Assembly: GCA_041742075.1 (NCBI GenBank)
Contig: JBGSJJ010000005.1
Coordinates: 17,648-81,647, forward strand
Direction of reading: 5' to 3'
Origin: Minisyncoccia bacterium
GTDB taxonomy: Bacteria > Patescibacteriota > Minisyncoccia > Phycocordibacterales > UBA918
DNA: 64,000 nucleotides
The notes beneath the pieces were generated by a model, which was given only the letters and a program-made list of their open reading frames with translations, was not told the origin of the DNA and did no database searches. Position 1 is the stretch's first letter; each line of letters starts with the position of its first letter. Made by a program: the position numbers and the translations under genes. This document shows, piece after piece, positions 1,607 to 36,501 of this stretch.

Positions 1607-2437
1607 ATGATTTTTACAAAAACAAATAAAATTATTTTTATACTCCTAACGATAGCTTTGGTGGTTGTGGTTATTGCTCGCTTTATGGTTACAGATGATG
1701 TGGCATCTCCTGAGGTTGAAGAGGTAGTGACTGAGTATAAAGACATGATTCGCATTGATTCACCACTTCCTAAATCAACCGTAAATTCACCACTAATTAT
1801 TACAGGAGAAGCTCGTGGAGGCTGGTTTTTTGAAGCCTCTTTTCCTGTTCTGTTGGTTAATTGGGACGGACTCATTATTGGTGAAGGTTTTGCAACTGCC
1901 GAAGGTGACTGGATGACTGAAGAGTATGTTCCATTTAAGGCAACAATTACCTACACCGTAGATACGAGTGTCTCAAGTGCCGGGTCGATTATTCTGCAGA
2001 AGCAAAACGCATCGGGCTTGCCAGAAAATGATGATGCTTTTGAGTACCCGATAGTATTTGCCAATTCAAATACTAATGAACCAGCGAGCGAAACTGACGA
2101 TAGTGCTCTTATAGGCACATCATGGCAATGGACCCATACCATCCTTTTAAATGGAGATCGTGTTACACCACCGGGGTCAGACTTTGTTTTGAGTTTTGAT
2201 GGTGCTGGGAAAGTGAGTAGTGCAACTGACTGTAATACACTTACCGGGACAGCGGTGACTCAAGGTGAAGTAATTAGTTTTGGTTCTTTCGTGAGTACAA
2301 AAATGTTTTGCGAAGGTTCTTTAGAAACGGTGTATGCTTCGCAACTTGGACTGGCTAACTCATACGCTATAGATAGGGAGGTGCTTAAGATGCAACTCAA
2401 TCGAGACTACGGCACGATGTATTTTACAAAGAATTAG
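1607..2437 (+). CDS. Secreted or membrane-anchored protein with a Gmad2 Ig-like domain plus a META/HslJ-like (DUF306) domain
   Basis: N-terminal TM segment. GEARGGWFFEASFPVLL...EYVPF matches the Gmad2 Ig-like pattern. C-terminal LIGTSWQW...DCNTLTGTA...FCEGSLETVYASQL...MQL is HslJ/META-like. Confidence 0.5.
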   Translation: MIFTKTNKIIFILLTIALVVVVIARFMVTDDVASPEVEEVVTEYKDMIRIDSPLPKSTVNSPLIITGEARGGWFFEASFPVLLVNWDGLIIGEGFATAEGDWMTEEYVPFKATITYTVDTSVSSAGSIILQKQNASGLPENDDAFEYPIVFANSNTNEPASETDDSALIGTSWQWTHTILLNGDRVTPPGSDFVLSFDGAGKVSSATDCNTLTGTAVTQGEVISFGSFVSTKMFCEGSLETVYASQLGLANSYAIDREVLKMQLNRDYGTMYFTKN

Positions 2438-4048: not shown

Positions 4049-4894
4049 ATGACAATTTTACTCGCTTCATGTCTCGTCGCAAGTGTATCGGTTATCGGGA
4101 TTCTGTTCTTTGGCTCTAGCACTAAAACGGGTTTTATTGAGCGTCTCATTGTCCCATTTGCAATTGGTACTTTTTTAGGGGTAACTTTTTTTGAACTTAT
4201 TCCTGAAACATTCGAAGCTCATTCGTCTTTGGGACCAGTAGCGATTGTCAGCGGTTTCCTCGCTTTTTATCTCTTGGCTCACTTACTTAGAACCTATCAC
4301 CACCACCATCACGGTGATAGACCTCATGATGCTTGTGAGACAACAAAATCTACCGCTTCGCTCTTGCTGTTTGGTGATGCTGTACACAACTTTGTTGACG
4401 GTATTGTTATTGCTTCGGCTTTCCTGATTAATCCAGTGGTTGGATGGGTGACGACGTTTGGTATTGCGCTTCATGAAGTGCCGCAGGAAATCGCTGAATT
4501 TGGTGTCCTAAAGCGCTCAGGATACACTTCAAAGCAGGCGATTTTGTATAATTTTGCTTCAGCCAGTTCGGTAATTGTGGGAGCGGGAAGCACATTACTT
4601 GTTTCGTCCGTTATGACTGATTTTGTGTGGGTATTAACGGGAGTTGCGGCTGGTAATTTACTCTATGTAGCTTTGTCAGACTTGTTACCAGGTGTTGAGA
4701 AAACAACTCAGAAAGACGGTACCTTTTACCAGTCCTTCACGGTGACCATTCTAGGTTTAATCTTTATTGTGTCTCTTATTTCTTGGTCACATGCAAACTT
4801 TGGCCATGCGCATGACGAAGGAGATCATGAACAAGTATTCAAAGAAGGAGATATGCATGACCATGAACACGAAATAGGTACTGTTATTCAGTAA
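4049..4894 (+). CDS. ZIP-family (ZupT-like) divalent metal/zinc transporter with His-rich loop and tail
   Basis: HHHHHGDRPHD loop, the conserved ZIP signature ALHEVPQEIAEFGVL, 8 predicted TM segments, C-terminal HAHDEGDHE...HDHEHE. Confidence 0.8.
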   Translation: MTILLASCLVASVSVIGILFFGSSTKTGFIERLIVPFAIGTFLGVTFFELIPETFEAHSSLGPVAIVSGFLAFYLLAHLLRTYHHHHHGDRPHDACETTKSTASLLLFGDAVHNFVDGIVIASAFLINPVVGWVTTFGIALHEVPQEIAEFGVLKRSGYTSKQAILYNFASASSVIVGAGSTLLVSSVMTDFVWVLTGVAAGNLLYVALSDLLPGVEKTTQKDGTFYQSFTVTILGLIFIVSLISWSHANFGHAHDEGDHEQVFKEGDMHDHEHEIGTVIQ

Positions 4895-6645: not shown

Positions 6646-7923
6646 ATGGCGCGCAAACCAAAGAAGAATATTATTGCGTTTGTTGGCGGTATTAAACCGA
6701 ATTCGCTCAGTGCAATCCGGGCCTATGGTAAAAAAACCGGTAATCCGTTTCGGATAATGCTTATTCAAGACATAAAGCACCCAGGAAATTCTAAAACACC
6801 ACAGCACGATATTTTACTCTTAGTAGATTTCAAAAAGCCAGAAAAAATTACTGAAGTACTTCTGCCTTATGAAAATGAACTATTGGCCATTAGCTGTCGA
6901 AGTGAAGTGCATATTGCGCGCTTTGCTAAGATTATCCCGTATGTGCCGTATCTGAGGACTCCGACCAGTGAGTCTCTTACCTGGTCAACGGATAAATATG
7001 AAATGAGGAAGCGATTTAAGTTATATAATCCTAAGATTACTCCGAACTTTACGAGAGTAAAAGATGTTTCTTTGGCTGAGCAAAAGCGGCTGATTGAAAA
7101 AATTGGTTTTCCGATGATTGTTAAACCAGCTAACCTCTCGGGCAGTTTATTTGTGAGTATTTGTTACCACGAAGAAGAACTGAAACAAGCAATTACTACC
7201 GGCTTTCGAAAAATTAAGCGCGCGTATGAAAACGATAACCGCCTCGAAGAACCCAAGCTGATTGCTGAGCAGTATATGGAGGGCGACATCTACTCTATTG
7301 ATAGCTATGTAAACTCTCGCGGTTCGGTGTATCATTTGCCACTTGTGCGGGTAAAAACTGGAAAGGACATCGGTCACCAGGACTTCTATGGTTATTTACA
7401 GATGACACCGACCATTTTAAAGGGCGAGACAGTGAAACGGGCGGAGTATGTAGCTGAAACTGCAATCCACGCTTTAGGACTTCGTAGTACGACGGCGCAC
7501 ACTGAACTTATGAAGATTGATAATGACTGGAAAGTTATTGAAGTCGGACCACGGACCGGTGGCGCACGCGATGTGCTTTACAAAATGAGCTGTGGTATTG
7601 AGCATTATCTCAATGATGTACTCATCCGGATGCCAAAAAAGCCAATCATCCCAAAGAAGTGCCATGGCAGTGCCGTGTACATGAAGTGGTTTTTACCAAA
7701 AGAAGGTACGATAACCGAAATGAAGGGTATTAAGAAGATTGAGCAACTGGAGTCGTTTCATAAGATTGAGGTAAATAAAAAGATAGGTGATAGGGCGGTT
7801 TTTGCAAAAAATGGCGGCCGGTCAGTCTTTAACCTCTACCTCTACAACGCCGATCGTGGGAAACTTTTAGCAGACATACGGCGGGTTGAACAGTTGGTGA
7901 AGATTAAGATAGCCTCAAAGTAG
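6646..7923 (+). CDS. ATP-grasp domain carboxylate-amine ligase (larger paralog, unknown substrate)
   Basis: FPMIVKPANLSGS...EQYMEGDIYSIDSYV...HTELMKIDNDWKVIEVGPRTGG fits the ATP-grasp fold. The N-terminal pre-ATP-grasp region is unassigned. Confidence 0.6.
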   Translation: MARKPKKNIIAFVGGIKPNSLSAIRAYGKKTGNPFRIMLIQDIKHPGNSKTPQHDILLLVDFKKPEKITEVLLPYENELLAISCRSEVHIARFAKIIPYVPYLRTPTSESLTWSTDKYEMRKRFKLYNPKITPNFTRVKDVSLAEQKRLIEKIGFPMIVKPANLSGSLFVSICYHEEELKQAITTGFRKIKRAYENDNRLEEPKLIAEQYMEGDIYSIDSYVNSRGSVYHLPLVRVKTGKDIGHQDFYGYLQMTPTILKGETVKRAEYVAETAIHALGLRSTTAHTELMKIDNDWKVIEVGPRTGGARDVLYKMSCGIEHYLNDVLIRMPKKPIIPKKCHGSAVYMKWFLPKEGTITEMKGIKKIEQLESFHKIEVNKKIGDRAVFAKNGGRSVFNLYLYNADRGKLLADIRRVEQLVKIKIASK

Positions 7924-7980
7924 TAGAGGTAACGTGGGGAAGCAGACCGAGCTAGAGAAGCCGGTGTTTGCTATGATAGG

Positions 7981-8751
7981 TTGATGATACGAACCCGGGA
8001 TTTTATTTTATTTGTCATCACCTTCTGTTTTTTGGTGCTCGCTATTATTTTTACTGTCACAAGTCACCGAGGTGGGTTTTTAAGTGTCGCGTTTAATGAG
8101 ACAACAAGCCAAGACGCGGGCGGAGTGATTGAAATAGAAGAAGTTTCAGAAGAGGAAACTCGCCAGAGTACAATAGCTCGTTTGCGTGAAAAAATTAAGA
8201 ACGCGCCGATCCTCAGTAGTAGCGCGCCGAGCGTGGTGACACCTGATGTTGTTATAGCCAGTAGTTCAGAAAGTGAAAGTGGGTCTCTAGAAGAAACGGT
8301 TGACGGTACTGTGGTAGCCCTACAAATGTGTCCTGGTGCCACCGATGGTCTAACGGTAGCGCAAGCCTGGCCGCGCACAGGAGTGACAGTCAGTGAAGTA
8401 GAAGGAGTACGGGTGGCGACGTACACAGATGCTATGGGAGTCAAGCAATTACTTTTGTTGCCACTCTATCCAAACCCGTCTGGTCAAAATTGTCTTACTT
8501 CAGAGATTATTGGTCTGACCAAAACCGGCTCGCTCATCTTTAACTCAGACGCAATTGCCTACCAAGCGAGTGGAGCTGAGACACTGATTGGGTATGCGCT
8601 CGATGGGGTGGCTATTTATGGGTTGTATACAGGCGTGACTGACGCTTGTGGCGGATATGACCACCCAAGTGGTTACCGGTATTCACTGTCGCCGGAACGA
8701 CCGTTTATGATTGGTTGCTATATGGCCAGTCCAGCCATGTTTAGTTTGTAA
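7981..8751 (+). CDS. Membrane-anchored hypothetical protein, possibly YHYH-domain-like
   Basis: N-terminal TM segment. C-terminal GYALDGVAIYG...DACGGYDHPSGYRYSL...GCY resembles the YHYH-family Cys/His motif region; the match is weak. Confidence 0.35.
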   Translation: MMIRTRDFILFVITFCFLVLAIIFTVTSHRGGFLSVAFNETTSQDAGGVIEIEEVSEEETRQSTIARLREKIKNAPILSSSAPSVVTPDVVIASSSESESGSLEETVDGTVVALQMCPGATDGLTVAQAWPRTGVTVSEVEGVRVATYTDAMGVKQLLLLPLYPNPSGQNCLTSEIIGLTKTGSLIFNSDAIAYQASGAETLIGYALDGVAIYGLYTGVTDACGGYDHPSGYRYSLSPERPFMIGCYMASPAMFSL

Positions 8752-8754
8752 AAT

Positions 8755-9486
8755 ATGTCTACCCTTATCTTCGACATTGAGACAGTTGGAGAAAGGTGGG
8801 AACATTTTGATACGGTAACTCAGGAAAGTTTAACTCGCTTTGGCGAACGAACTGCCAAAACAGACGCCGAGAAAACAGCCTACCTTAAACAGGTGCAGGC
8901 CAACTTGGGTTTCTCGCCCCTAACCGGGCACATTGTCGCAATTGCTGTGTACGATTTGGAACGTGAGAAAGGGGCGGTGTACTATACGGGTAAGGGAGAC
9001 GAAGTCGACGCCGAAGTTGACGGCTATATCTTAAAACAGAGAAGTGAGCGGGAGATGTTAGAAGATTTTTTCGAAGGAGCGAGAAGCTATGACACCTTTG
9101 TCAGTTTCAGTGGCAGAACTTTTTCGGTGCCTTTTTTGCTTCATCGGGCGGTCGTTCATGGCGTACAGCCCTTACCTGAGCTACTGGACGCAAGGTACTT
9201 AAGCCAACAAAAGAATATTGTACATATTGATTTACTTGATCAGCTTACCTTTTATGGCGTCATGTATCCAAAGCCGTCACTTCATCTGTTTTGTCGCTCC
9301 TATGGGATAGTAAGTCCGAAGCAGTCTGGTGAAACAGGGGATGGGGTCACGGAACTTTTTTCTCAACAAAAGTTCCGTGACCTAGCGTGCTATAGCGCAA
9401 GCACAGCTACTGCTGTAACCGAGTTGTATAAAAAATGGCTCGAATACCTAGCGCCAACCACGTTTTTAAATACTATTGATTTTTAG
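8755..9486 (+). CDS. RNase H-like 3'-5' exonuclease (PolB-exonuclease-like, YprB family)
   Basis: Exo I FDIET, Exo II-like VSFSGRTFSVPFL, Exo III-like HIDLLDQL...Y. Confidence 0.6.
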   Translation: MSTLIFDIETVGERWEHFDTVTQESLTRFGERTAKTDAEKTAYLKQVQANLGFSPLTGHIVAIAVYDLEREKGAVYYTGKGDEVDAEVDGYILKQRSEREMLEDFFEGARSYDTFVSFSGRTFSVPFLLHRAVVHGVQPLPELLDARYLSQQKNIVHIDLLDQLTFYGVMYPKPSLHLFCRSYGIVSPKQSGETGDGVTELFSQQKFRDLACYSASTATAVTELYKKWLEYLAPTTFLNTIDF

Positions 9487-10754: not shown

Positions 10755-11693
10755 ATGGCTTGGCTTATTCTTGCAACCATCGGACAGTTTTTAAACGCGG
10801 TGGTTGCCATTTTAGATAAGTACATTGTTTCAGATAAAAACAATGAGGCACTTCTGCGTCCGTTTGTGTATGCTTTTTACTCCTGTCTTTTGACGGGAGC
10901 GTGGGTCGCTGTGTATTTGCTTGGTTTTATCCCATTTCCAGACACCTTCAATGTTCCGACCTATGAGAATGTAGAGCACCCCACATTAAACGTCCTGGCA
11001 CTGTCTATCTTGGCGGCTTATACGTTTTTTATGGCGCTTGTCTCGATGTATGACGCACTGAGGCAAGCTGATGCCTCTGATGTGATGCCAGTAATTGGCG
11101 CGGTGGCTGGATTAGCTTCATTTGGAATGAACTATTACTTTCTTGATGGCAGGTTGTCGCAAAACTTTATTATCGGAGTGGTGTTGCTTTCGTTTGGTAC
11201 GCTCTTGGTTTCGAGAACGCGTTTTGATTATCGGATAGCGCTCATTACGTTGCATAGTGGTATGTTTTTTGCGCTTCACTACATCACCATGAAAGGTCTT
11301 TTTACCGAAACAACCTTTGATAATGGTTTTTTCTGGTCACGCATGGCCTTTGTTGGTTTTGCTCTCTCACTTCTTATGGTTCCTGCGTATCTTGATAAAA
11401 TTAAAGATCAAACCAAATCGACTACCAAACGGTCAGGTGTACTGATTCTGTTTAACAAAATTTTGGCTGGTATAGCCGCGTTTCTCTTACTCAAAGCTAC
11501 CGATTGGGGTGACGTAACGGTGGTGCAGGCTCTTGATGGTCTTAAGTACGTATTTATTATTGTGCTCGGGCTTATTTTTATGCGGTGGTTGCCAAAAGGT
11601 GCCACAGATGAAATTTTTGATATAGGAATTATCATGCGCAAGGTAATGTATATTGTGCTTATTACGGGAGGCTTCGTGGTACTATTTATATAA
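10755..11693 (+). CDS. Polytopic membrane protein, possibly DMT/EamA-like transporter
   Basis: About 10 predicted TM helices. Lies between two glycosidase genes. No diagnostic motif recognised. Confidence 0.35.
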   Translation: MAWLILATIGQFLNAVVAILDKYIVSDKNNEALLRPFVYAFYSCLLTGAWVAVYLLGFIPFPDTFNVPTYENVEHPTLNVLALSILAAYTFFMALVSMYDALRQADASDVMPVIGAVAGLASFGMNYYFLDGRLSQNFIIGVVLLSFGTLLVSRTRFDYRIALITLHSGMFFALHYITMKGLFTETTFDNGFFWSRMAFVGFALSLLMVPAYLDKIKDQTKSTTKRSGVLILFNKILAGIAAFLLLKATDWGDVTVVQALDGLKYVFIIVLGLIFMRWLPKGATDEIFDIGIIMRKVMYIVLITGGFVVLFI

Positions 11694-11707: not shown

Positions 11708-12709
11708 ATGAATAGAAAACGTCTTAAAGTCAGCCTACTCGCCCTGTGCGCTACAGTAGTTTTTTTAGGAGCAGTCGTGCTCTTTTTAAGTAGCAAACCG
11801 GTTCCAGAGAAGATTACGTACGGCATGTCGTTTAACACTATGTATGCCCGTGAACTGGGTCTTGATTGGAAAGAAGTGTATGACGCTATTCTAAATGATC
11901 TTGGGGTGCGTCACCTAAGACTCGCGGCACACTGGCCAATGGTAGAACCTCAGAAAGACGTTTATAACTTTGAAGAACTTGATTATCAGCTTAAGCGAGC
12001 GGAAGAGGTAGGGGCGGAAGTAGTCTTTGCGGTAGGGAAGCGCCTACCGCGCTGGCCAGAGTGCCACGTGCCAGAGTGGGCTAAAGAGCTTAGTGTTGAA
12101 GAAGAGCAAAAAGAAGTTTTGAGCTTGATAGAGATGCTGATGACACGGTACAAGGACAGCCCGGCTATTACCTACTGGCAGATTGAAAACGAGCCCTACT
12201 TAGAAGTTTTTGCTCGTGAGCACTGTGATCCGCTTGATGAAAAATTCCTCGAAGCAGAAATCGCCTTGGTCCGCAGTCTGGATAGTAGTCGACCACTTCT
12301 TGTGACTGATAGTGGAAATCTTGGTACTTGGTCAGGCGCGTACCGTCACGGTGATGCCTTTGGAACGAGTGTGTATGTACATTTTTGGAATCCAGAGTTT
12401 GGGCAGTTCCGGACTATTCTCCCGCCTTGGTTTTATCGGTTTAAGGAGAGTCTCGTCACTCTCCGTTATGGTGAGAAAGAAACTATGCTTATAGAACTGT
12501 CGGCGGAACCCTGGTTAGTTGAGCCGGTCGTTGATGTGCCGATAGATGTTCAGTTTACCCGAATGGATATCGAAAAGTTTAACGACATTTTGGAGTATGC
12601 CGAAGATACACGGTATGAAAAGCAATATCTCTGGGGCGCAGAATGGTGGTATTGGCTTTTAAAGCGTGATCATTCTGAATTATGGAATCGAGGTAAAGAA
12701 CTTTTTTAA
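11708..12709 (+). CDS. Glycoside hydrolase, GH5-like (cellulase superfamily), membrane-anchored
   Basis: N-terminal TM segment, RLAAHWPMVEP, and the catalytic acid motif WQIENEP. Confidence 0.6.
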   Translation: MNRKRLKVSLLALCATVVFLGAVVLFLSSKPVPEKITYGMSFNTMYARELGLDWKEVYDAILNDLGVRHLRLAAHWPMVEPQKDVYNFEELDYQLKRAEEVGAEVVFAVGKRLPRWPECHVPEWAKELSVEEEQKEVLSLIEMLMTRYKDSPAITYWQIENEPYLEVFAREHCDPLDEKFLEAEIALVRSLDSSRPLLVTDSGNLGTWSGAYRHGDAFGTSVYVHFWNPEFGQFRTILPPWFYRFKESLVTLRYGEKETMLIELSAEPWLVEPVVDVPIDVQFTRMDIEKFNDILEYAEDTRYEKQYLWGAEWWYWLLKRDHSELWNRGKELF

Positions 12710-24845: not shown

Positions 24846-26836
<1,991 letters not shown>

Positions 26837-26896
26837 GTGAGCAAACGAGCGTAGCGACTATTGCGAACTTATGTCCCGATTTTTTCTCCCCAGAGA

Positions 26897-27166
26897 AAAT
26901 CGCTGGACAAAGGGAAATAATCAAATGGGAAAAACCGCGTTTGCGTCCGACGGGAGCCCTGAATTATCCGTGCAAGGTGACTGTTGTTTTCTCCCCAGAG
27001 AAGCATAGAAAATCCATTAGGAATAGAATTTTCTATGTATGAAAATCATTGTCGCTACGCTCTGTGATTTACACAATCGCTGGACAAAGGGAAATAATCA
27101 AATGGGAGGAACCGCGTTTGCGTCCGACGGGAGCTCCGCACTATCCGTGCAAGGTGATTGTTTGTT
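26897..27166 (+). repeat. Two copies of a 90-nt element about 179 bp apart, 3' of groEL. Candidate structured sRNA or tandem micro-ORFs, each with an RBS
   Basis: Copy 1 at 26897-26986 and copy 2 at 27076-27166 are about 85% identical (ATCGCTGGACAAAGGGAAATAATCAAATGGGA..ACCGCGTTTGCGTCCGACGGGAGC...ATCCGTGCAAGGTGA). Copy 1 is flanked by a 16-bp direct repeat TTTTCTCCCCAGAGAA. An intrinsic terminator follows copy 2. Confidence 0.45.
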
Positions 27167-27188
27167 CTCTTTCGCGAGATATGAAAAA

Positions 27189-27213
27189 GCCAGCCACACG
27201 AGCTGGCTTTTTC
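27189..27213. terminator. Bidirectional intrinsic terminator (GCCAGC-cacacga-GCTGGC plus T-tract)
   Basis: aaaaaGCCAGCcacacgaGCTGGCttttt is visible directly. It closes the groESL / repeat-element transcript. Confidence 0.6.
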
Positions 27214-27295
27214 ATTTGTTCTACACTATCTGCGTAGAGTGATGCCTTACCTCGAACTATAAAACACAGACGACCCTACAGGATCGTCTGTGTTT

Positions 27296-27336
27296 GTATA
27301 AAAGCAAACTGGCGCACGTTCTTAAACGTGCGCCAG
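27296..27336 (-). terminator. Intrinsic terminator for the minus-strand wHTH gene
   Basis: CTGGCGCACGTTcttAAACGTGCGCCAG hairpin followed (on the minus strand) by a U-rich tract, 7 bp past the stop at 27343. An additional hairpin lies at 27264-27293. Confidence 0.5.
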
Positions 27337-27342
27337 ACAGAT

Positions 27343-27924
27343 TTATACTTTTGTACCAATAGTAATTTTTCTTCGGGAAGTTTCAGGTATCCAGGCCTGC
27401 AACTCTTCTACTGATGTCTGGTAAGCCAGAATGGCTTCACTCATCGTGATGAGTTTAAAACAAACTGCCAGCAATAGTGTTTTTCGGTGCGTCGTTTGCC
27501 ATCCTCTGGTACGAGGGCTAGGCAATTCGGCTCTCCATAGAGTGCTCCCGTCCGGCAGTTTTATGGACTGAGGCGAGCCATTTTTAAGTACCTGGTAGAT
27601 ATCTTCAGGTGGACGATGTTCACGTATGATGTAACCTCTACCCTTAACTACTTCGACACAACCATGAGGGATTTTTTTGAAAATCTTGAAAAAAAGTATG
27701 TCAAATTGTTTATCTCGTACTATAGTTTCGTTGGGAAAGAATCTCTCGCTAAGCATTTTTTTCGTGGTAACAATGTCTTTGCGTACGGCAATCCATTCCA
27801 GAATGTCGTATTCAAGGCCTGATAGGTTAACTTTCTTCCCAGCAACGTGTAGTTCACGGCTAGTTAAGCGAAACTCCAAGCTGTTTACAACGTACGTTTG
27901 TGTGGGCAAGACAGCGCTTGTCAT
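27343..27924 (-). CDS. Standalone OmpR/PhoB-type winged-helix (Trans_reg_C-like) DNA-binding protein with a C-terminal HTH_17-like motif
   Basis: No receiver domain. The segment LEFRLTSRELHVAGKKVNLSGLEYDILEWIAV...VEVVKGRGYII fits the OmpR C-terminal wHTH pattern. The C-terminal SEAILAYQTSVEELQAWI is excisionase/MerR-like. Confidence 0.45.
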   Translation of the reverse strand: MTSAVLPTQTYVVNSLEFRLTSRELHVAGKKVNLSGLEYDILEWIAVRKDIVTTKKMLSERFFPNETIVRDKQFDILFFKIFKKIPHGCVEVVKGRGYIIREHRPPEDIYQVLKNGSPQSIKLPDGSTLWRAELPSPRTRGWQTTHRKTLLLAVCFKLITMSEAILAYQTSVEELQAWIPETSRRKITIGTKV

Positions 27925-28022
27925 CGTTCTTACTCCAGTTCTATCTACTAGAAAGCTAACACACTAATTAAAATTGTAAATAAATACAAAACTGGCTGTC
28001 TCAAGGTGAGACAGCCAGCAAC

Positions 28023-28706
28023 TTAAATAGTTTCGAGCCAAGAACAGGGCAACTCTTCACGATAGCTTTGGTCCGTAAAGTAGGAAATATACCAATCCCA
28101 AATTTCCTCATTCGTTATGCCGTAGGCATCGCGGGCTTCTTTAAGTGAAATAAGTCTATACGCTAATGCTTGGATAATACGTACTTTGTGAATAGCGCAC
28201 CAAATTTTGAGAGTATGCTTTGGCAAATCTTTTCGATCAAGAATCTGGTAATTACTCATTACTATCGCCGTGGGGGCTGTGGTAAGTGAGATAGGTAGTA
28301 GCGGTTTACGCGTATTGGCTATGCCGTAACCGCGATTCTTAATGTACTGAATCGTATTGCGAGCGTGAACGTAGCCTAACAGTCGAGCGTTAATTCTTCG
28401 AACCGTCAAACCAAGCGAATTGCTATTTACTAACGTATTGCCGATTGGGCTTTCGGCAATACGTTTGGTGCTTGTAAAAGTACCGATTCTGACAGCGAGG
28501 TATTCAAGGAGGGCATACTCATGAGGATAGAGAACAAGGCAATTCCCGGCTACAACCAGCCGGCTAGTATCCAAATTGAACTGAAGGTCGTTGCATACGT
28601 AGTATTGCGAACCGTCATGGCTCGGGTATCCAGGGATATCCGACATCATATTCATGTTCTGTCTCCACTTTGTGTCAAAACCTTTCCTTTCATGATTAAA
28701 GCACAA
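28023..28706 (-). CDS. Paralogous standalone OmpR-type winged-helix protein with a C-terminal HTH_17-like motif
   Basis: LQFNLDTSRLVVAGNCLVLYPHEYALLEYLAV...IKNRGYGI (wHTH), and the C-terminal LISLKEARDAYGITNEEIWDWY. Same architecture as the neighbouring gene. Confidence 0.45.
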   Translation of the reverse strand: MCFNHERKGFDTKWRQNMNMMSDIPGYPSHDGSQYYVCNDLQFNLDTSRLVVAGNCLVLYPHEYALLEYLAVRIGTFTSTKRIAESPIGNTLVNSNSLGLTVRRINARLLGYVHARNTIQYIKNRGYGIANTRKPLLPISLTTAPTAIVMSNYQILDRKDLPKHTLKIWCAIHKVRIIQALAYRLISLKEARDAYGITNEEIWDWYISYFTDQSYREELPCSWLETI

Positions 28707-28792
28707 ACAAAGTAAACTACAAAAAAGCTATCTTGACGAAAGTAAAAATATGGTACACTACTGACATTACTATAAAGTAACAGACATTTGTT

Positions 28793-29374
28793 ATGATGAC
28801 TTGGATTATTCTCGGAGTGATAGGAGTGCTCGTGTTTTGGGCAATTATTGCGTACAACAACTTTGTAAAACTAACGCAACGGACAAAAGAAGCGTGGGCA
28901 GACATTGATGTTCAGCTTAAGCGCCGTTATGACCTTATTCCAAACCTGATTGAGACAGTTAAAGGCTACGCTGCTCATGAACGAGGGGTTTTTGAAGAAG
29001 TGACCGAAGCGAGAGCAAAAGCGACGCAGGTTCACGTCGACCCAACTGGTATTACGGCGGAACAAATAACTGCGATGGCAGGAGCGGAAGGCGCACTTAG
29101 TGCGTCTCTTGGAAAGTTGCTCGCTGTGGCTGAAGCGTATCCAGACCTTAAGGCTAACCAAAACTTTGCCCAACTCCAGACTGAGCTTTCAGATACTGAA
29201 AACAAGATTCAAGCCGCTCGTCGCTTCTATAACGGCAATGTCCGTGACCTCAAGATTGCACTCCAGTCTTTTCCTTCAAACATTGTGGGTAGCGCCTTTG
29301 GCTTTAAAGAAGAAGAGTTCTTCGAGCTTGGGGAAGGTAGTGTGGAGCGAGAGAACGTTAAAGTAAGCTTCTAA
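28793..29374 (+). CDS. lemA: LemA family protein
   Basis: N-terminal TM segment, then NNFVKLTQRTKEAWADIDVQLKRRYDLIPNL...ARRFYNGNVRDLKIALQSFPSNIVG, a canonical LemA. Confidence 0.85.
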   Translation: MMTWIILGVIGVLVFWAIIAYNNFVKLTQRTKEAWADIDVQLKRRYDLIPNLIETVKGYAAHERGVFEEVTEARAKATQVHVDPTGITAEQITAMAGAEGALSASLGKLLAVAEAYPDLKANQNFAQLQTELSDTENKIQAARRFYNGNVRDLKIALQSFPSNIVGSAFGFKEEEFFELGEGSVERENVKVSF

Positions 29375-33538: not shown

Positions 33539-34321
33539 ATGAATAAAAACCTTGTCATTGCGATAGTGATTACCTTCGTGCTAATCGGTATTGCAGTTGT
33601 GGTTGGTAATACAAACAAAAAAGACGCTGAAATTGCTCAAGTAGCAACGGAAGAGGTGATTGGTGAAAGTACGGTGTTTTATGCCGAGTATGATCCATCA
33701 GTTACCTTTGAAATTATTTTTGCAGAGGAACTGGCTAAGTTCGTTGGCAGTGACTTAGACGGAATAATTCTTACTCAAGTAGAAAGTGCTTCTGGTGCAA
33801 AGTATGAAAATAAGGAGGCTAATGTGGCAGTTTGGAATAAGGGCTCTCAAGTTACTATTTATAAAAACGATATAGAAATCTTCACGGGTATAGAAGGGGA
33901 AGCGCCTCCGGTAGTTGAGCCAGAAACTTCAACCACTACTGCTGAAGTCGATGAACGGTTGACTGCTTCAAACTGGGTTTGGAGTAAAACCGAGATTAAT
34001 GATGGGAGGGTCCTTGAGCCGTCTACACCAGGCGCGTTTATACTCTCGTTTGCTAAAGACGGTACCGTACGTCTAAAAACTGACTGCAATAGCTTTTCCG
34101 GTATGTATACAGCCACTCTAACAAGTGTAAAAATATCCTCACTTGGCGGTACCGAGATGGCCTGTGCGGAAACGAACGAAACTGACCTGACGAGGTCACT
34201 CATTGACCCAATGGAATTTTTCTTTACCGAAGCCGGCGACTTGGTCCTTCAGATACCCTACGATTCTGGCTCAATTATTTTCACGAAGGAGGGTGGAGTA
34301 GTGGATGCCGAGTCAGTTTAA
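33539..34321 (+). CDS. Membrane-anchored protein with an MliC-like lipocalin domain plus a META/HslJ-like domain
   Basis: N-terminal TM segment. AEYDPSVTFEIIF...GAKYENKEANVAVWNKGSQVTIY is MliC-like. SNWVWS...DCNSFSGMYTA...MACAE...LQI is META/DUF306-like. Confidence 0.45.
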   Translation: MNKNLVIAIVITFVLIGIAVVVGNTNKKDAEIAQVATEEVIGESTVFYAEYDPSVTFEIIFAEELAKFVGSDLDGIILTQVESASGAKYENKEANVAVWNKGSQVTIYKNDIEIFTGIEGEAPPVVEPETSTTTAEVDERLTASNWVWSKTEINDGRVLEPSTPGAFILSFAKDGTVRLKTDCNSFSGMYTATLTSVKISSLGGTEMACAETNETDLTRSLIDPMEFFFTEAGDLVLQIPYDSGSIIFTKEGGVVDAESV

Positions 34322-34866
34322 GTCTTTGGTAAAAACTTGCTGTGAATTTCGGAGCTTTTAATTTTGGTGAATGTCTCAAGAAACAAAAGGTCACGTGCAA
34401 CAATAAATGTACCTATGTAGTCAGTTGGTTTACTTTCTCTAAGTAATGAAATTGCGTTGTCGAGCGATACCCATAGCGGTATAAGACCAATTTCTTTTTC
34501 TCCCTCTTCAAGCTGTGTCTCGTGTATGTCACCAACAACCTTAGCTTCAAAGCAGTATGAGACTTGAAGGAGATTAATTTGATTTCTATACTCAATTGTT
34601 ACACCTATTTCATTCACTACATTACAATCACAACCAGCCTCCTCCAGAACTTCACGTCTGAGCGTAGTTTCGATATTTTCACCGTGCTCAATTCCACCGC
34701 CAGGGAGTTTGTAGTGGTTAAGCTTTGAGATATGTTGGAAAGAAATCTGATTTTGATCATTGAACAAAATTGCTCGAGCAGCTTTTCTAAGTTTGTATGG
34801 TTTGTCAAAATACTCATTAGTACCAATGCCAAGTGATGCATCAGTAATTTCTTTAATTAATTCCAT
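34318..34866 (-). CDS. NUDIX hydrolase
   Basis: Nudix box GGGIEHGENIETTLRREVLEEAGCD. Confidence 0.8.
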   Translation of the reverse strand: MELIKEITDASLGIGTNEYFDKPYKLRKAARAILFNDQNQISFQHISKLNHYKLPGGGIEHGENIETTLRREVLEEAGCDCNVVNEIGVTIEYRNQINLLQVSYCFEAKVVGDIHETQLEEGEKEIGLIPLWVSLDNAISLLRESKPTDYIGTFIVARDLLFLETFTKIKSSEIHSKFLPKT

Positions 34867-35069
34867 ATAATTTAGTATAACTCTTAAATAGTCGAGTATA
34901 TTTAGTGGAGGTGCAAAGGGGGGGATTCGATTCTTACAGAATCTGTGCAGCGTTTGGATATTTTAATTCACTTTGTTCTTAAAATATCTCAAACCGCTTT
35001 TCAAATCCTGGCAACGGATTTTTTCAAAATCCTGCCACCCACCCTCCACTCGTTCGTTGCACTTACTCG

Positions 35070-35156
35070 CGGAGGGTGGGGGATTTGAACCCCCGATCAG
35101 GTTACCCCAATACCGCCTTTCCAAGGCGGCGCACTAGACCACTATGCGAACCCTCC
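35070..35156 (-). tRNA. tRNA-Ser (anticodon GGA), class II with long variable arm
   Basis: Minus-strand sequence GGAGGGTTCGCATAGTGGTCTAGTGCGCCGCCTTGGAAAGGCGGTATTGGGGTAACCTGATCGGGGGTTCAAATCCCCCACCCTCCG. Acceptor stem GGAGGGU/ACCCUCC, anticodon loop UUGGAAA, T-loop GGTTCAAATCC. The 3' trailer forms a terminator hairpin with CCACCCACCCTCCAC at 35038-35052. Confidence 0.8.
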
Positions 35157-35250
35157 AATTTATTAAACCTAACTGTAGGATTCGATAGTGGTCTAGTTGA
35201 CTAGTCCTCCTCGCTTCACTCGGATGAATATGTACCCCATACATATTCAT

Positions 35251-35271
35251 CCACTATGCGAACCCTCCAAT
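35251..35271 (-). repeat. 21-bp exact duplicate of the tRNA-Ser 5' end about 112 bp upstream of the tRNA, adjacent to a perfect 12-bp-stem hairpin (tRNA fragment or att-like remnant)
   Basis: CCACTATGCGAACCCTCCAAT occurs at 35139-35159 and at 35251-35271. Hairpin GGATGAATATGTaccccatACATATTCATCC at 35221-35251. A D-arm-like GATAGTGGTCTAGTTGAC at 35184-35201. Confidence 0.5.
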
Positions 35272-35331
35272 GTTTAGCACTGCATCATACCGTATTTTTA
35301 TGGGCTATGAAAATACTGGTATACTTATAGT

Positions 35332-35850
35332 ATGGAATTAGCGACCAAACCTCAAAAACAACTGATTGTAGCCACGTTTCTTTTCGGCTTTTTTACTGGC
35401 GCGTACCTGTACGTAACAGTGTTTGCACCAGCGTATAGTGACGGTATAGTGCCAGACCTTAGGTCAAGTTCAAAAGATAACGACTTCAATATCCAGGCCA
35501 CGCAGTACGGTGCCTGTCTTCAGTCTGGTCTTACCTGTCCAACCTATGAACTAGATGCTAGAGGTATGTTGCGCGCTTTGCCAGGAGTACCACTGGATGA
35601 AGAAGATATTCTGGTAGAGATAGAACTCACCTCTGCTGATATGCGTCTTGTAAAGAACGCAGTAAGAGAGGCAACACTTGAAGCGTATGCCGCCACGAGT
35701 GATCGTGAGGATTGTGCACAGGTGGAGAGTAATGAGTATCGGTACATGATTACCAATGGGGCTGACACCTATACGCTTGATACTTGTCGGACTGACTTTG
35801 ATAAGACAAGTGAACTGCAGGAGGTGCTTGAAGCCCTTTTTGAAGAATAA
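35332..35850 (+). CDS. Hypothetical membrane-anchored protein
   Basis: N-terminal TM segment, acidic C-terminus, no recognised domain. Confidence 0.3.
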   Translation: MELATKPQKQLIVATFLFGFFTGAYLYVTVFAPAYSDGIVPDLRSSSKDNDFNIQATQYGACLQSGLTCPTYELDARGMLRALPGVPLDEEDILVEIELTSADMRLVKNAVREATLEAYAATSDREDCAQVESNEYRYMITNGADTYTLDTCRTDFDKTSELQEVLEALFEE

Positions 35851-35868
35851 AGTGATAGAATAGAAGAT

Positions 35869-36501
35869 ATGAAATGGTACGCTTGCACGTTCCTTCCTTT
35901 ACTCATCCTTATGTGGGCATTCCCAGTCTGGGGAGCAGAGTTTGTGTCGCCTCAGTCGAGTACCGACTTAGTGGTGATAGACCATGAGAAGCCTGGCATG
36001 TGGTATTTTGGTACCTTGGACGACGCGCCCCACACCTTCATGCTGTACTTGGATGAGACCAAAGAAGTGAAACTGCAAGTACTGGTACCAGCTCGCGGGG
36101 GAGCTGAAGCACAGACAAAAGGAGCGATTATTGTGAAGCAAGCAACACGTGGGGTAGATGAAGTCGCGCGGCTAAAAGCCGAAACGGCCTCGTGGGATCC
36201 TTTTACGGACTGGATCACCGCTGACCGGTATGTGCGCGGGGCAGAATTTAACGGGAGTCTTGATAGTGGGGTCTATATTATAGAAGTGCATAGCCCGGAC
36301 AATCTCGGTCCCTATGTGCTCACCTATGGTACTGGTGGTAGTCTTTCTGGCTATAATTACTTTAAGAACCTCGCTCAGGTCTATCATATAAAACAAAGTA
36401 ACGGCTCGCCGATAGTCTGGATGATTTTGTCGCCCCTGGTGTATATACCACTTGTCCTACTTGCAATCGGGCTTTGGTGGTATCGAAAAAAATATGCTTA
36501 A
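35869..36501 (+). CDS. Hypothetical secreted protein with a C-terminal TM anchor
   Basis: Signal peptide (..PVWGAEF), C-terminal TM segment plus KK tail. No recognised domain. Confidence 0.3.
   Translation: MKWYACTFLPLLILMWAFPVWGAEFVSPQSSTDLVVIDHEKPGMWYFGTLDDAPHTFMLYLDETKEVKLQVLVPARGGAEAQTKGAIIVKQATRGVDEVARLKAETASWDPFTDWITADRYVRGAEFNGSLDSGVYIIEVHSPDNLGPYVLTYGTGGSLSGYNYFKNLAQVYHIKQSNGSPIVWMILSPLVYIPLVLLAIGLWWYRKKYA

Follow-up and report, generated by a model that had tools for sequence, protein, structure and literature searches.

CtrA (NF045991) is the cell-cycle response regulator of Alphaproteobacteria, and the small CtrA inhibitory protein SciP (DUF1153/PF06627, NF051866), a separate polypeptide of about 90 aa, occurs in Caulobacter and other Alphaproteobacteria. 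The CtrA/SciP module has previously been regarded as an alphaproteobacterial hallmark. The OmpR family also has receiver-less members such as ToxR, CadC and TcpP, which are membrane-anchored and carry periplasmic sensors. In Caulobacter SciP inhibits CtrA-activated promoters; it binds CtrA directly, blocking the recruitment of RNA polymerase, or occupies an extended CtrA box together with CtrA (PMC4083442). SciP footprints motifs of the GCGAC type, and a CtrA motif is also present in 80% of the promoters that carry a SciP motif (PMC4287350). Whether SciP acts through binding of CtrA, of DNA or of both is disputed (PMC4083442 versus PMC4287350).

We analyzed a 64-kb stretch of DNA, in the following called the window, which contains two neighboring genes, geneA and geneB. 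Both encode a receiver-less winged helix of the CtrA type together with a SciP/DUF1153-like domain. As in the SciP-CtrA partnership (PMC4083442, PMC4287350), a SciP-like domain is thus associated with a CtrA-type DNA-binding domain, but unlike free-standing SciP it is covalently fused behind the winged helix. The setting differs as well, since the host is not an alphaproteobacterium and the window contains neither a ctrA gene nor any receiver domain. The combination of winged helix and DUF1153 is found in none of ToxR, CadC, TcpP or the CtrA-like winged-helix proteins of roseophage RDJL; unlike geneA and geneB, the phage proteins have no domain similar to SciP, and the membrane anchor of the former three is absent from geneA and geneB.

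The gene pair and its surroundings

A preliminary description of this DNA had reported two minus-strand ORFs forming a tandem paralogous pair, divergent from lemA and convergent with groES-groEL. All of this was borne out: the ORFs are present, also in the public gene call, the orientation of the neighbors is as described, and the two proteins are paralogs sharing 29% identity over 176 aa (E 2e-21). They are mutual best matches among all family members, with geneB being the more diverged of the two.

24846-26836, plus strand: groES-groEL, convergent with the gene pair
27309..27336, minus strand: intrinsic terminator of geneA, 12-bp stem with 8 G-C pairs and a T tract
27343..27924, minus strand: geneA, ORF of 193 aa with ATG start, GGAG 8 nt upstream
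28002-27973, minus strand: weak sigma-70-like geneA promoter, overlapping the geneB terminator
27991..28019, minus strand: predicted intrinsic terminator of geneB
28023..28655, minus strand: geneB, ORF of 210 aa from the ATG at 28655, GGAG 7 nt upstream
28793-29374, plus strand: lemA, divergent from the gene pair

The maximal ORF of geneB spans 28023-28706 (TTG start, 227 aa) and the public gene call starts at 28649 (208 aa); the ATG at 28655 (210 aa) or the start at 28649 is more probable than the TTG at 28706. Since geneB ends in its own intrinsic terminator, the two genes are separate transcription units. An Rfam search of the spacer between groEL and geneA returned only terminator-like matches below threshold. 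GC content over both genes is 0.41–0.44, similar to the surroundings. A small dispersed repeat adjoins geneA. The geneA protein (P0001; geneB corresponds to P0002 in the search clusters) was found as identical copies in NCBI and Logan assemblies, and in two sequencing runs.

The neighborhood of the pair comprises groESL, secG, lemA, DUF6159, DUF2207, htpX and RNase J. The nearest named GroEL sequences come from Ca. Kaiserbacteria (87%) and from Paceibacterota/Parcubacteria; GroEL thereby assigns the uncultured, ultra-small host to the Parcubacteria/Kaiserbacteria group of the CPR.

Domain make-up of the two proteins

27619..27897, minus strand: geneA winged-helix domain (aa ~10-102), four-stranded sheet, three helices and C-terminal hairpin
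27367..27579, minus strand: geneA SciP/DUF1153-like domain (aa ~116-186), beta-hairpin and three helices
28314..28604, minus strand: geneB winged-helix domain (aa ~35-131 of the 227-aa ORF; Pfam Trans_reg_C 56-127, AF2 secondary structure)
28074..28277, minus strand: geneB SciP/DUF1153-like domain (aa ~144-211 of the 227-aa ORF; Pfam 144-206, NCBIfam, AF2)

The C-terminal segment common to both proteins proved to be a genuine second domain. Pfam DUF1153 (PF06627, gathering threshold 23.5 bits) matched geneA with 47.8 bits (aa 116-180) and geneB with 41.7 bits (aa 144-206), and the NCBIfam SciP model NF051866 gave 47.3 bits for geneA (E 1.8e-12, model positions 6-73) and 38.4 bits for geneB (E 1e-9, positions 8-70), both below the equivalog cutoff of 100 bits over the 90-position model. 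Like SciP, the C-terminal 65–70 residues of both proteins are built from a beta-hairpin and three helices and carry the signature DLP...RW..RK..VV.A...L[IL][ST]..EA...Y..[ST].EE...W; the DUF1153 structures 2oa4 and 2jrt were matched by sequence, and 2jrt also by fold. Unlike SciP, both lack the conserved C-terminal tail (G..GLR.TR.Q.YR). The preliminary description had taken this segment for an excisionase-like HTH_17 motif. That assignment was ruled out, as neither protein gave a Pfam match to HTH_17 (PF12728) even at E ≤ 10; the domain is DUF1153/SciP.

The winged helix was recognized by its fold. AF2 models (pLDDT 84.9 and pTM 0.74 for geneA, pLDDT 77.9 and pTM 0.50 for geneB) contain an N-terminal four-stranded sheet, a three-helix bundle with the recognition helix and a C-terminal hairpin wing, as in OmpR/PhoB and in CtrA. 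The pTM values suggest a defined packing of the two domains for the geneA model but do not do so for that of geneB. By sequence, the similarity to Trans_reg_C (PF00486) that had been proposed is present, at 19.2 bits for geneA and 24.1 bits for geneB, but stays below the Pfam threshold of 26.2 bits, which the syntenic relatives P0013, P0176, P0052 and P0084 pass. The earlier view of a standalone domain holds: neither protein has a Response_reg match in Pfam, a response-regulator HMM aligns through its positions 123-223 only, and counted from the probable start codon only about 10–15 residues precede the winged helix. Unlike CtrA, both proteins thus lack the receiver and with it control by phosphorylation.

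Among OmpR-family models in NCBIfam, CtrA was the best for the winged helix of geneA (40.6 bits, local match with E 2.2e-10). With geneB it reached 16.3 bits; both matches cover the DNA-binding part only and lie far below the full-length equivalog cutoff of 350 bits. The recognition helix has diverged from that of CtrA: of the signature KIIDVF.CKLRKKL, geneA retains only a part and geneB little. The family alignment shows that both proteins retain a T-K pair, which we take to correspond to T170-K171 of CtrA (numbering after PMC6847485 and the Caulobacter sequence). The residues invariant in the family, RG[YF], DLP, W142, Y168, E174 and W178 in geneA numbering, are all kept in both copies.

Taken alone, geneB shows no preference for CtrA among the OmpR-family models, as would be expected if the pair were ordinary orphan activators of the ToxR/CadC or PhoB-effector kind whose C-terminal domain is a dimerization or stability tail unrelated to SciP-type control. 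We consider this improbable, because that domain is a significant homolog of DUF1153/SciP by both sequence and fold, relatives join it specifically to CtrA-type domains in both orders, and there is neither a membrane span nor a periplasmic sensor. The ToxR-like orphan pair that the preliminary description had suggested was ruled out: the sole hydrophobic segment, aa 149-167 of geneA (Kyte-Doolittle 1.85), forms the buried helical core of the SciP-like domain, predicted with pLDDT above 90 and homologous to the soluble protein 2jrt.

A rare fusion family and its slot between groEL and lemA

An exhaustive HMMER search of 1.84 billion cluster representatives, with both window proteins as queries, found only these two themselves at E ≤ 1e-30 and thus no close relative of either gene. 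It identified about 10 clusters with the same domain order and about 5–6 with the reverse order, all of them metagenomic, in agreement with the earlier remark that the architecture is unusual. Both domains were matched in a single stretch in P0007, P0009, P0013, P0047, P0052, P0097, P0101, P0122, P0149 and P0084. Where members were compared with Pfam, both domains scored above threshold; P0047 has Trans_reg_C alone on record, and for P0097 the check was made against NCBIfam. In four forward relatives (P0013, P0176, P0052 and P0097) CtrA was by far the best NCBIfam model for the N-terminal domain at 75–102 bits, and the C-terminal domain scored 75–88 bits with the SciP model. The linker between the domains measures 15–45 residues across the family. 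Since fusions in reverse order exist (P0003, P0044, P0066, P0102 and P0086), the two domains must have been joined at least twice.

Other searches yielded little. A word-index search with geneA returned its own sequence only, the same search with the family alignment returned P0047, P0001 and ordinary response regulators, and a scan of genome contigs gave only two response-regulator loci of Lentisphaeria, matched in the winged helix.

The slot between groEL and lemA varies among related contigs: it may contain a single fusion gene, a true CtrA, the two together, a gene for a winged helix only, or no gene at all. Fusion genes adjoin lemA as in the window in three cases (P0013 in L005, P0176 in L007, P0084 in L017), and L014 and L015 carry a CtrA. 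Syntenic relatives have clear CtrA-type DNA-binding domains, and some a complete CtrA gene, at this position; the ORF at 7840-8565 of L007 passes the CtrA equivalog cutoff of 350 with 394 bits. At 96% GroEL identity, the nearest relative carries no fusion there but just a 121-aa winged-helix gene, and in two relatives the slot is empty; the fusion gene is therefore dispensable. Flanking proteins are mostly 76–96% identical to those of the relatives, DUF2207 being an exception with only 45–48% outside L011, whereas the window proteins, which have diverged further than any other member of the family, share only 18–28% with their syntenic counterparts. The slot is thus a clear case of regulator turnover, in which the regulator is swapped or lost between well conserved flanks.

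Such divergence raises the question of whether geneA and geneB are remnants of a CtrA/SciP module that decay or drift after loss of ctrA, with intact ORFs and little or no regulatory role. The departure from the flanks is extreme, both the SciP tail and the larger part of the CtrA recognition signature have disappeared, ctrA and receivers are missing from the window, close relatives have the slot empty or filled otherwise, and both genes are singletons among the 1.84 billion representatives. Decay is nevertheless unlikely in our view: both ORFs are unbroken and each has its own RBS and terminator, every family-invariant residue is present in both copies, each AF2 model predicts both domains with confidence, the identical protein was recovered in two sequencing runs, and retention of two copies after a duplication would be unexpected under decay.

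The preliminary description had also considered a control module derived from a mobile element, and that the pair might be restricted to this genome beside phage or IS remnants; the restriction was found for the two sequences, the remnants were not. If the pair had been brought in by a mobile element, a prophage remnant or a defense islet at an insertion hot spot, this would fit the variable slot content even at 96% GroEL identity, the repeat beside geneA and the occurrence of CtrA-like winged-helix genes in phages of Alphaproteobacteria. This explanation is very improbable, however. Integrase, transposase, phage structural and defense genes are all absent within 10 kb, and GC content does not depart from the surroundings. 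None of 36 cultured-phage records covered at least 80% of the query, all matching the winged helix only; PHROGs matches were confined to the winged helix too, BFVD gave no match at E ≤ 1e-3 and PADLOC nothing meaningful. The slot is syntenic and chromosomal in relatives, and whenever it is filled there, the occupant belongs to the CtrA family and is transcribed divergently from lemA, which looks like evolution in place rather than insertion. An origin from phage, IS or defense elements was therefore rejected.

We favor the explanation that the fusion family is rare and chromosomal, that geneA and geneB arose within it by a tandem duplication specific to this lineage, and that their products, combining a receiver-less CtrA-type winged helix with a SciP/DUF1153 domain, are two-module regulators independent of phosphorylation. 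We put the probability of this explanation as a whole, including the mechanism set out below, at roughly 0.6.

Proposed mode of action and wider setting

While domain identity, paralogy, family, synteny and taxonomy are shown by the sequences, we infer the following scheme for DNA binding, repression and targets. Since the receiver is missing, both proteins would bind DNA independently of phosphorylation, with the winged helix contacting one half-site. The tethered SciP-like domain could then either read a short neighboring motif, resulting in a two-part recognition, or mask the surface that a CtrA-type domain uses to bring in RNA polymerase. The outcome would be repression or anti-activation, and the proteins probably act as repressors. 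The pair can be seen as a natural covalent version of CtrA and SciP, with parts of a cell-cycle switch in an unexpected phylum. Being small and soluble (190–240 aa), the fusions are well suited for structure determination and DAP-seq, which could show how the modules are placed on DNA.

As far as the window alone is concerned, we claim no more than two diverged putative regulators. More tentatively, and possible rather than probable, a CtrA/SciP-derived module operates in Kaiserbacteria-like CPR, where independent fusion in both orders has produced self-contained, phosphorylation-free regulators, the window pair being a working and rapidly diversifying example. In that case the fusions would provide "Rosetta-stone" evidence that SciP acts on DNA directly beside the CtrA DNA-binding domain. 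The module would then probably have been gained through horizontal transfer, with alphaproteobacterial hosts as conceivable donors, given that the CtrA of CPR shares about 70% identity with that of Alphaproteobacteria. The literature searched contained no joint mention of CtrA and CPR taxa, and the term "DUF1153" was absent from the indexed papers searched. CtrA and SciP-like domains in CPR/Kaiserbacteria raise questions about gene flow with neighbors or hosts and about the regulation of division and envelope in minimal cells.

Because the divergent pairing with lemA is conserved, the first candidate targets would be the envelope cluster lemA-DUF6159-DUF2207-htpX, which is possibly under control of the pair, and the promoters of geneA and geneB themselves. 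Canonical CtrA boxes (TTAA-N7-TTAA) are not enriched: one occurs in 64 kb compared to 2.6 expected, none lies near the gene pair, and related loci showed no enrichment either. The spacer between lemA and geneB contains another short repeated motif.

28656..28792, no strand assigned: control region between the divergent lemA and geneB, carrying TTACTTT three times on the same strand, a candidate operator only
28709-28715, 28739-28745 and 28774-28780, one strand: the TTACTTT copies in this spacer

By a rough estimate that becomes borderline once all 7-mers are counted, this clustering is a weak lead as an operator; TTACTTT occurs 22 times in the 64 kb compared to 16.9 expected, with these three copies falling within 72 bp.

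A winged helix joined to a SciP-like domain

Two neighboring minus-strand ORFs, geneA and geneB, occupy the interval between groEL and lemA, in the divergent and convergent arrangement that the preliminary description had given:

24846-26836, plus strand: groES-groEL, convergent with geneA
27309-27336: strong intrinsic terminator of geneA
27343-27924, minus strand: geneA, ORF of 193 aa with ATG start
27991-28019: strong intrinsic terminator of geneB
28023-28706, minus strand: geneB, longest ORF with TTG start, 227 aa
28793-29374, plus strand: lemA, divergent from geneB

A GGAG ribosome binding site (27936-27933) is located 8 nt 5’ of the geneA start codon. The true geneB product is probably 208–210 aa long, because an alternative ATG at 28655 is preceded by GGAG at 7 nt and the public gene call (P0002, 208 aa) begins at 28649. 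Since each gene possesses its own terminator, geneA and geneB represent separate transcription units. The proteins share 29% identity over 176 aligned residues (E 2e-21). In a family-wide comparison each is the best match of the other, and the pair therefore derives from a lineage-specific tandem duplication.

ORF analysis, Pfam, PDB searches and AF2 models all agree with the earlier assignment of a tandem pair of receiver-less OmpR-type winged helices carrying a second domain. The N-terminal parts match OmpR/PhoB effector domains in the PDB, and CtrA is the top-ranked NCBIfam model for that of geneA (E 2.2e-10). The expected Trans_reg_C similarity was present, at scores (19.2 bits for geneA, 24.1 for geneB) below the Pfam threshold of 26.2. 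In the C-terminal parts DUF1153 (PF06627) is significant in both proteins (47.8 and 41.7 bits, threshold 23.5). The NCBIfam model for SciP, the alphaproteobacterial CtrA inhibitor of about 90 aa, matches the same region under its equivalog cutoff (E 1.8e-12 and 1e-9), as do both solved DUF1153 proteins, 2oa4 (E 2.9e-10) and 2jrt (E 3.7e-8). HTH_17 gave no Pfam match even at E <= 10, and the label “excisionase-like” should be replaced by “SciP/DUF1153-like”. A ToxR-like reading likewise lacks its defining feature: neither protein contains a membrane span, the sole hydrophobic stretch being the core of the SciP-like helices.

AF2 models computed from a 12-sequence family alignment (geneA: pLDDT 84.9, pTM 0.74; geneB: pLDDT 77.9, pTM 0.50) show both domains in both proteins: an N-domain of a four-stranded sheet, three helices and a hairpin, followed by a low-confidence linker and a C-domain consisting of a beta-hairpin and three helices.

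Fusions in both domain orders

Close relatives are lacking for both geneA and geneB. Among 5.8 billion proteins, a word-index search with geneA recovered geneA alone, and of the 1.84 billion cluster representatives covered by an exhaustive HMMER search none but the two window proteins reached E <= 1e-30. The HMMER search nevertheless returned about ten clusters whose match extends over both domains without a break (P0007, P0009, P0013, P0047, P0052, P0097, P0101, P0122, P0149 and P0084). Forward-order members checked with Pfam carry Trans_reg_C and DUF1153 above threshold; for P0047 Trans_reg_C is the sole domain on record, and P0097 was scored with NCBIfam only. Most forward relatives show the CtrA-type signature HLYGG..EPELKIIDVF.CKLRKKL...VWGRGY. 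In four of them (P0013, P0176, P0052, P0097) CtrA is by a wide margin the best NCBIfam model for the N-domain (75–102 bits), and SciP scores 75–88 bits in the C-domain.

The same search detected the reverse order, with the SciP-like domain N-terminal to the CtrA-type winged helix, in P0003, P0044, P0066, P0102 and P0086, all on short contigs and with both Pfam domains above threshold. Their N-termini look like stand-alone SciP-like matches from this search. In P0121 DUF1153 is accompanied by a putative winged helix. All relatives of either order are metagenomic; one, on a short contig, is labelled as coming from a “Neisseriaceae” MAG.

As fusions occur in both orders, the two domains were joined at least twice. 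Such joining is the classical “Rosetta-stone” sign that two partners interact functionally. In published work, SciP is described as a direct binder of CtrA that keeps RNA polymerase from being recruited, or as occupying an extended box jointly with CtrA (PMC4083442); it is also reported to footprint GCGAC-type motifs, with a CtrA motif present as well at 80% of promoters with a SciP motif (PMC4287350).

The groEL-lemA slot in related contigs

The nearest named relatives of the window GroEL are Candidatus Kaiserbacteria (87%) and Paceibacterota/Parcubacteria (80–82%), all of the Patescibacteria/CPR group, and the gene content of the window (RNase J, secG, SBP_bac_5, lemA-DUF2207-htpX) agrees with this placement. 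Syntenic contigs (L-numbers) were fetched via GroEL relatives.

Table. Content of the groEL-lemA slot, with GroEL identity to the window
L011, 96%: only a 121-aa wHTH-only gene (11750-12115, minus strand; Trans_reg_C 20.8 bits)
L007, 92%: fusion P0176, membrane protein, receiver-only gene and 241-aa CtrA (7840-8565, plus strand; NCBIfam CtrA equivalog 394 bits, cutoff 350)
L014, 90%: full CtrA, 237 aa (7814-8527, minus strand; receiver 163 bits against Brucella CtrA, 4qpj)
L016, 90%: empty
L005, 89%: single fusion gene P0013
L015 (Kaiserbacteria MAG GCA_020428795.1), 87%: partial CtrA, truncated by the contig end (7788-8095, minus strand)
L012, 87%: empty
L017, more distant relative: fusion P0084, divergent from lemA

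The interval is thus a variable slot in which a CtrA-family gene divergent from lemA is nearly always present. Three Kaiserbacteria-like CPR contigs (L007, L014, L015) encode a true CtrA response regulator there. The CtrA proteins of L014 and L007 are 71% identical, and identity to Caulobacter CtrA is about 70%. The gene caller overlooked ctrA in L007 and called an antisense ORF of 159 aa instead. Within the 64-kb window neither ctrA nor any receiver domain was found. For other fusion-family members the chromosomal context is an unrelated one.

Two further CtrA-derived genes were observed in L007: a receiver-only paralog of 192 aa directly after ctrA (8567-9145, plus strand) and a protein of 230 aa that combines a degenerate receiver with a CtrA-type DNA-binding domain (1695-2387, minus strand) and adjoins a ParB-like gene. 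The ParB-like gene and the gene of the 230-aa protein belong to a region downstream of htpX that is also variable (L007 317-3433); its counterpart in the window (33539-36501) contains MliC/META, NUDIX, tRNA-Ser(GGA) at 35069-35156 and two unknown ORFs.

Since each of the two domains is a member of a known family, the proteins do not represent a new kind. The searchable literature describes neither the fusion, nor its two orders, nor CtrA and SciP-like sequences from Kaiserbacteria-like CPR bacteria: no paper combining CtrA with CPR taxa was found there, and no indexed paper contains “DUF1153”.

Divergence of the pair and candidate targets

Flanking genes are well conserved between the window and the syntenic contigs (LemA 82–94%, L017 74%; HtpX 76–93%, L017 64%; GroES 73–93%; GroEL 87–96%), with DUF2207 as the exception (45–48% outside L011), whereas geneA and geneB reach only 18–28% identity to fusion genes in the same slot. 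No homolog is detectable in the closest contig, L011, whose wHTH-only protein has almost no sequence similarity to either; at 96% GroEL identity, this gene shows fast regulator turnover in the slot. Both window proteins lack the C-terminal SciP tail conserved in relatives, and much of the CtrA recognition-helix signature is eroded, more so in geneB than in geneA. These losses, together with the low identity beside conserved flanks, are the grounds for the main rival explanation, that the two are relic genes. All (near-)invariant residues of the family (RG[YF], DLP, W142, Y168, E174, W178) are retained in both. This pattern is compatible with two histories, one of rapid functional diversification and one in which constraint was relaxed once ctrA had been lost.

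An origin from a mobile element, as suggested in the preliminary description, or from phage or defence genes is disfavored: recombinase and phage genes are absent nearby, phage database matches cover the winged helix only, PADLOC gave no meaningful match, and GC content across the pair (0.41–0.44) is unremarkable compared to the surroundings.

Within the fusion family, geneA and geneB are the most degenerate members and the hardest to interpret, and their function is a prediction. As the receiver is missing, DNA binding by these proteins would be independent of phosphorylation. One half-site would be contacted by the winged helix, and the SciP-like domain tethered to it would either touch a short motif next to that site or mask the surface with which the winged helix activates; either arrangement would yield a repressor or anti-activator. 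Divergent pairing with lemA is conserved in the window, L005/L006 and L017, and in L014 with CtrA itself, which makes the lemA-DUF6159-DUF2207-htpX envelope cluster and the genes’ own promoters (autoregulation) the first candidate targets. Canonical CtrA boxes are not enriched in the window or related loci. Three TTACTTT copies inside 72 bp of the lemA-geneB spacer were borderline after multiple testing, and no defensible operator was found.

The groEL-geneA spacer contains three terminator-like hairpins in series (27181-27215, 27262-27295, 27309-27336), one of them bidirectional, and a 15-nt inverted pair with GCGAC (26847-26861 and 27048-27062). Between 26882 and 27165 an 88-nt direct repeat (26898-26985 and 27075-27162, 92% identical) is accompanied by exact flanking 16-mers (26882-26897, 26987-27002). 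Rfam holds no family for this sequence, possibly a small dispersed repeat or else an unknown RNA; fragments of it are located at two sites in L011, at about 4165-4345 and 11594-11612.
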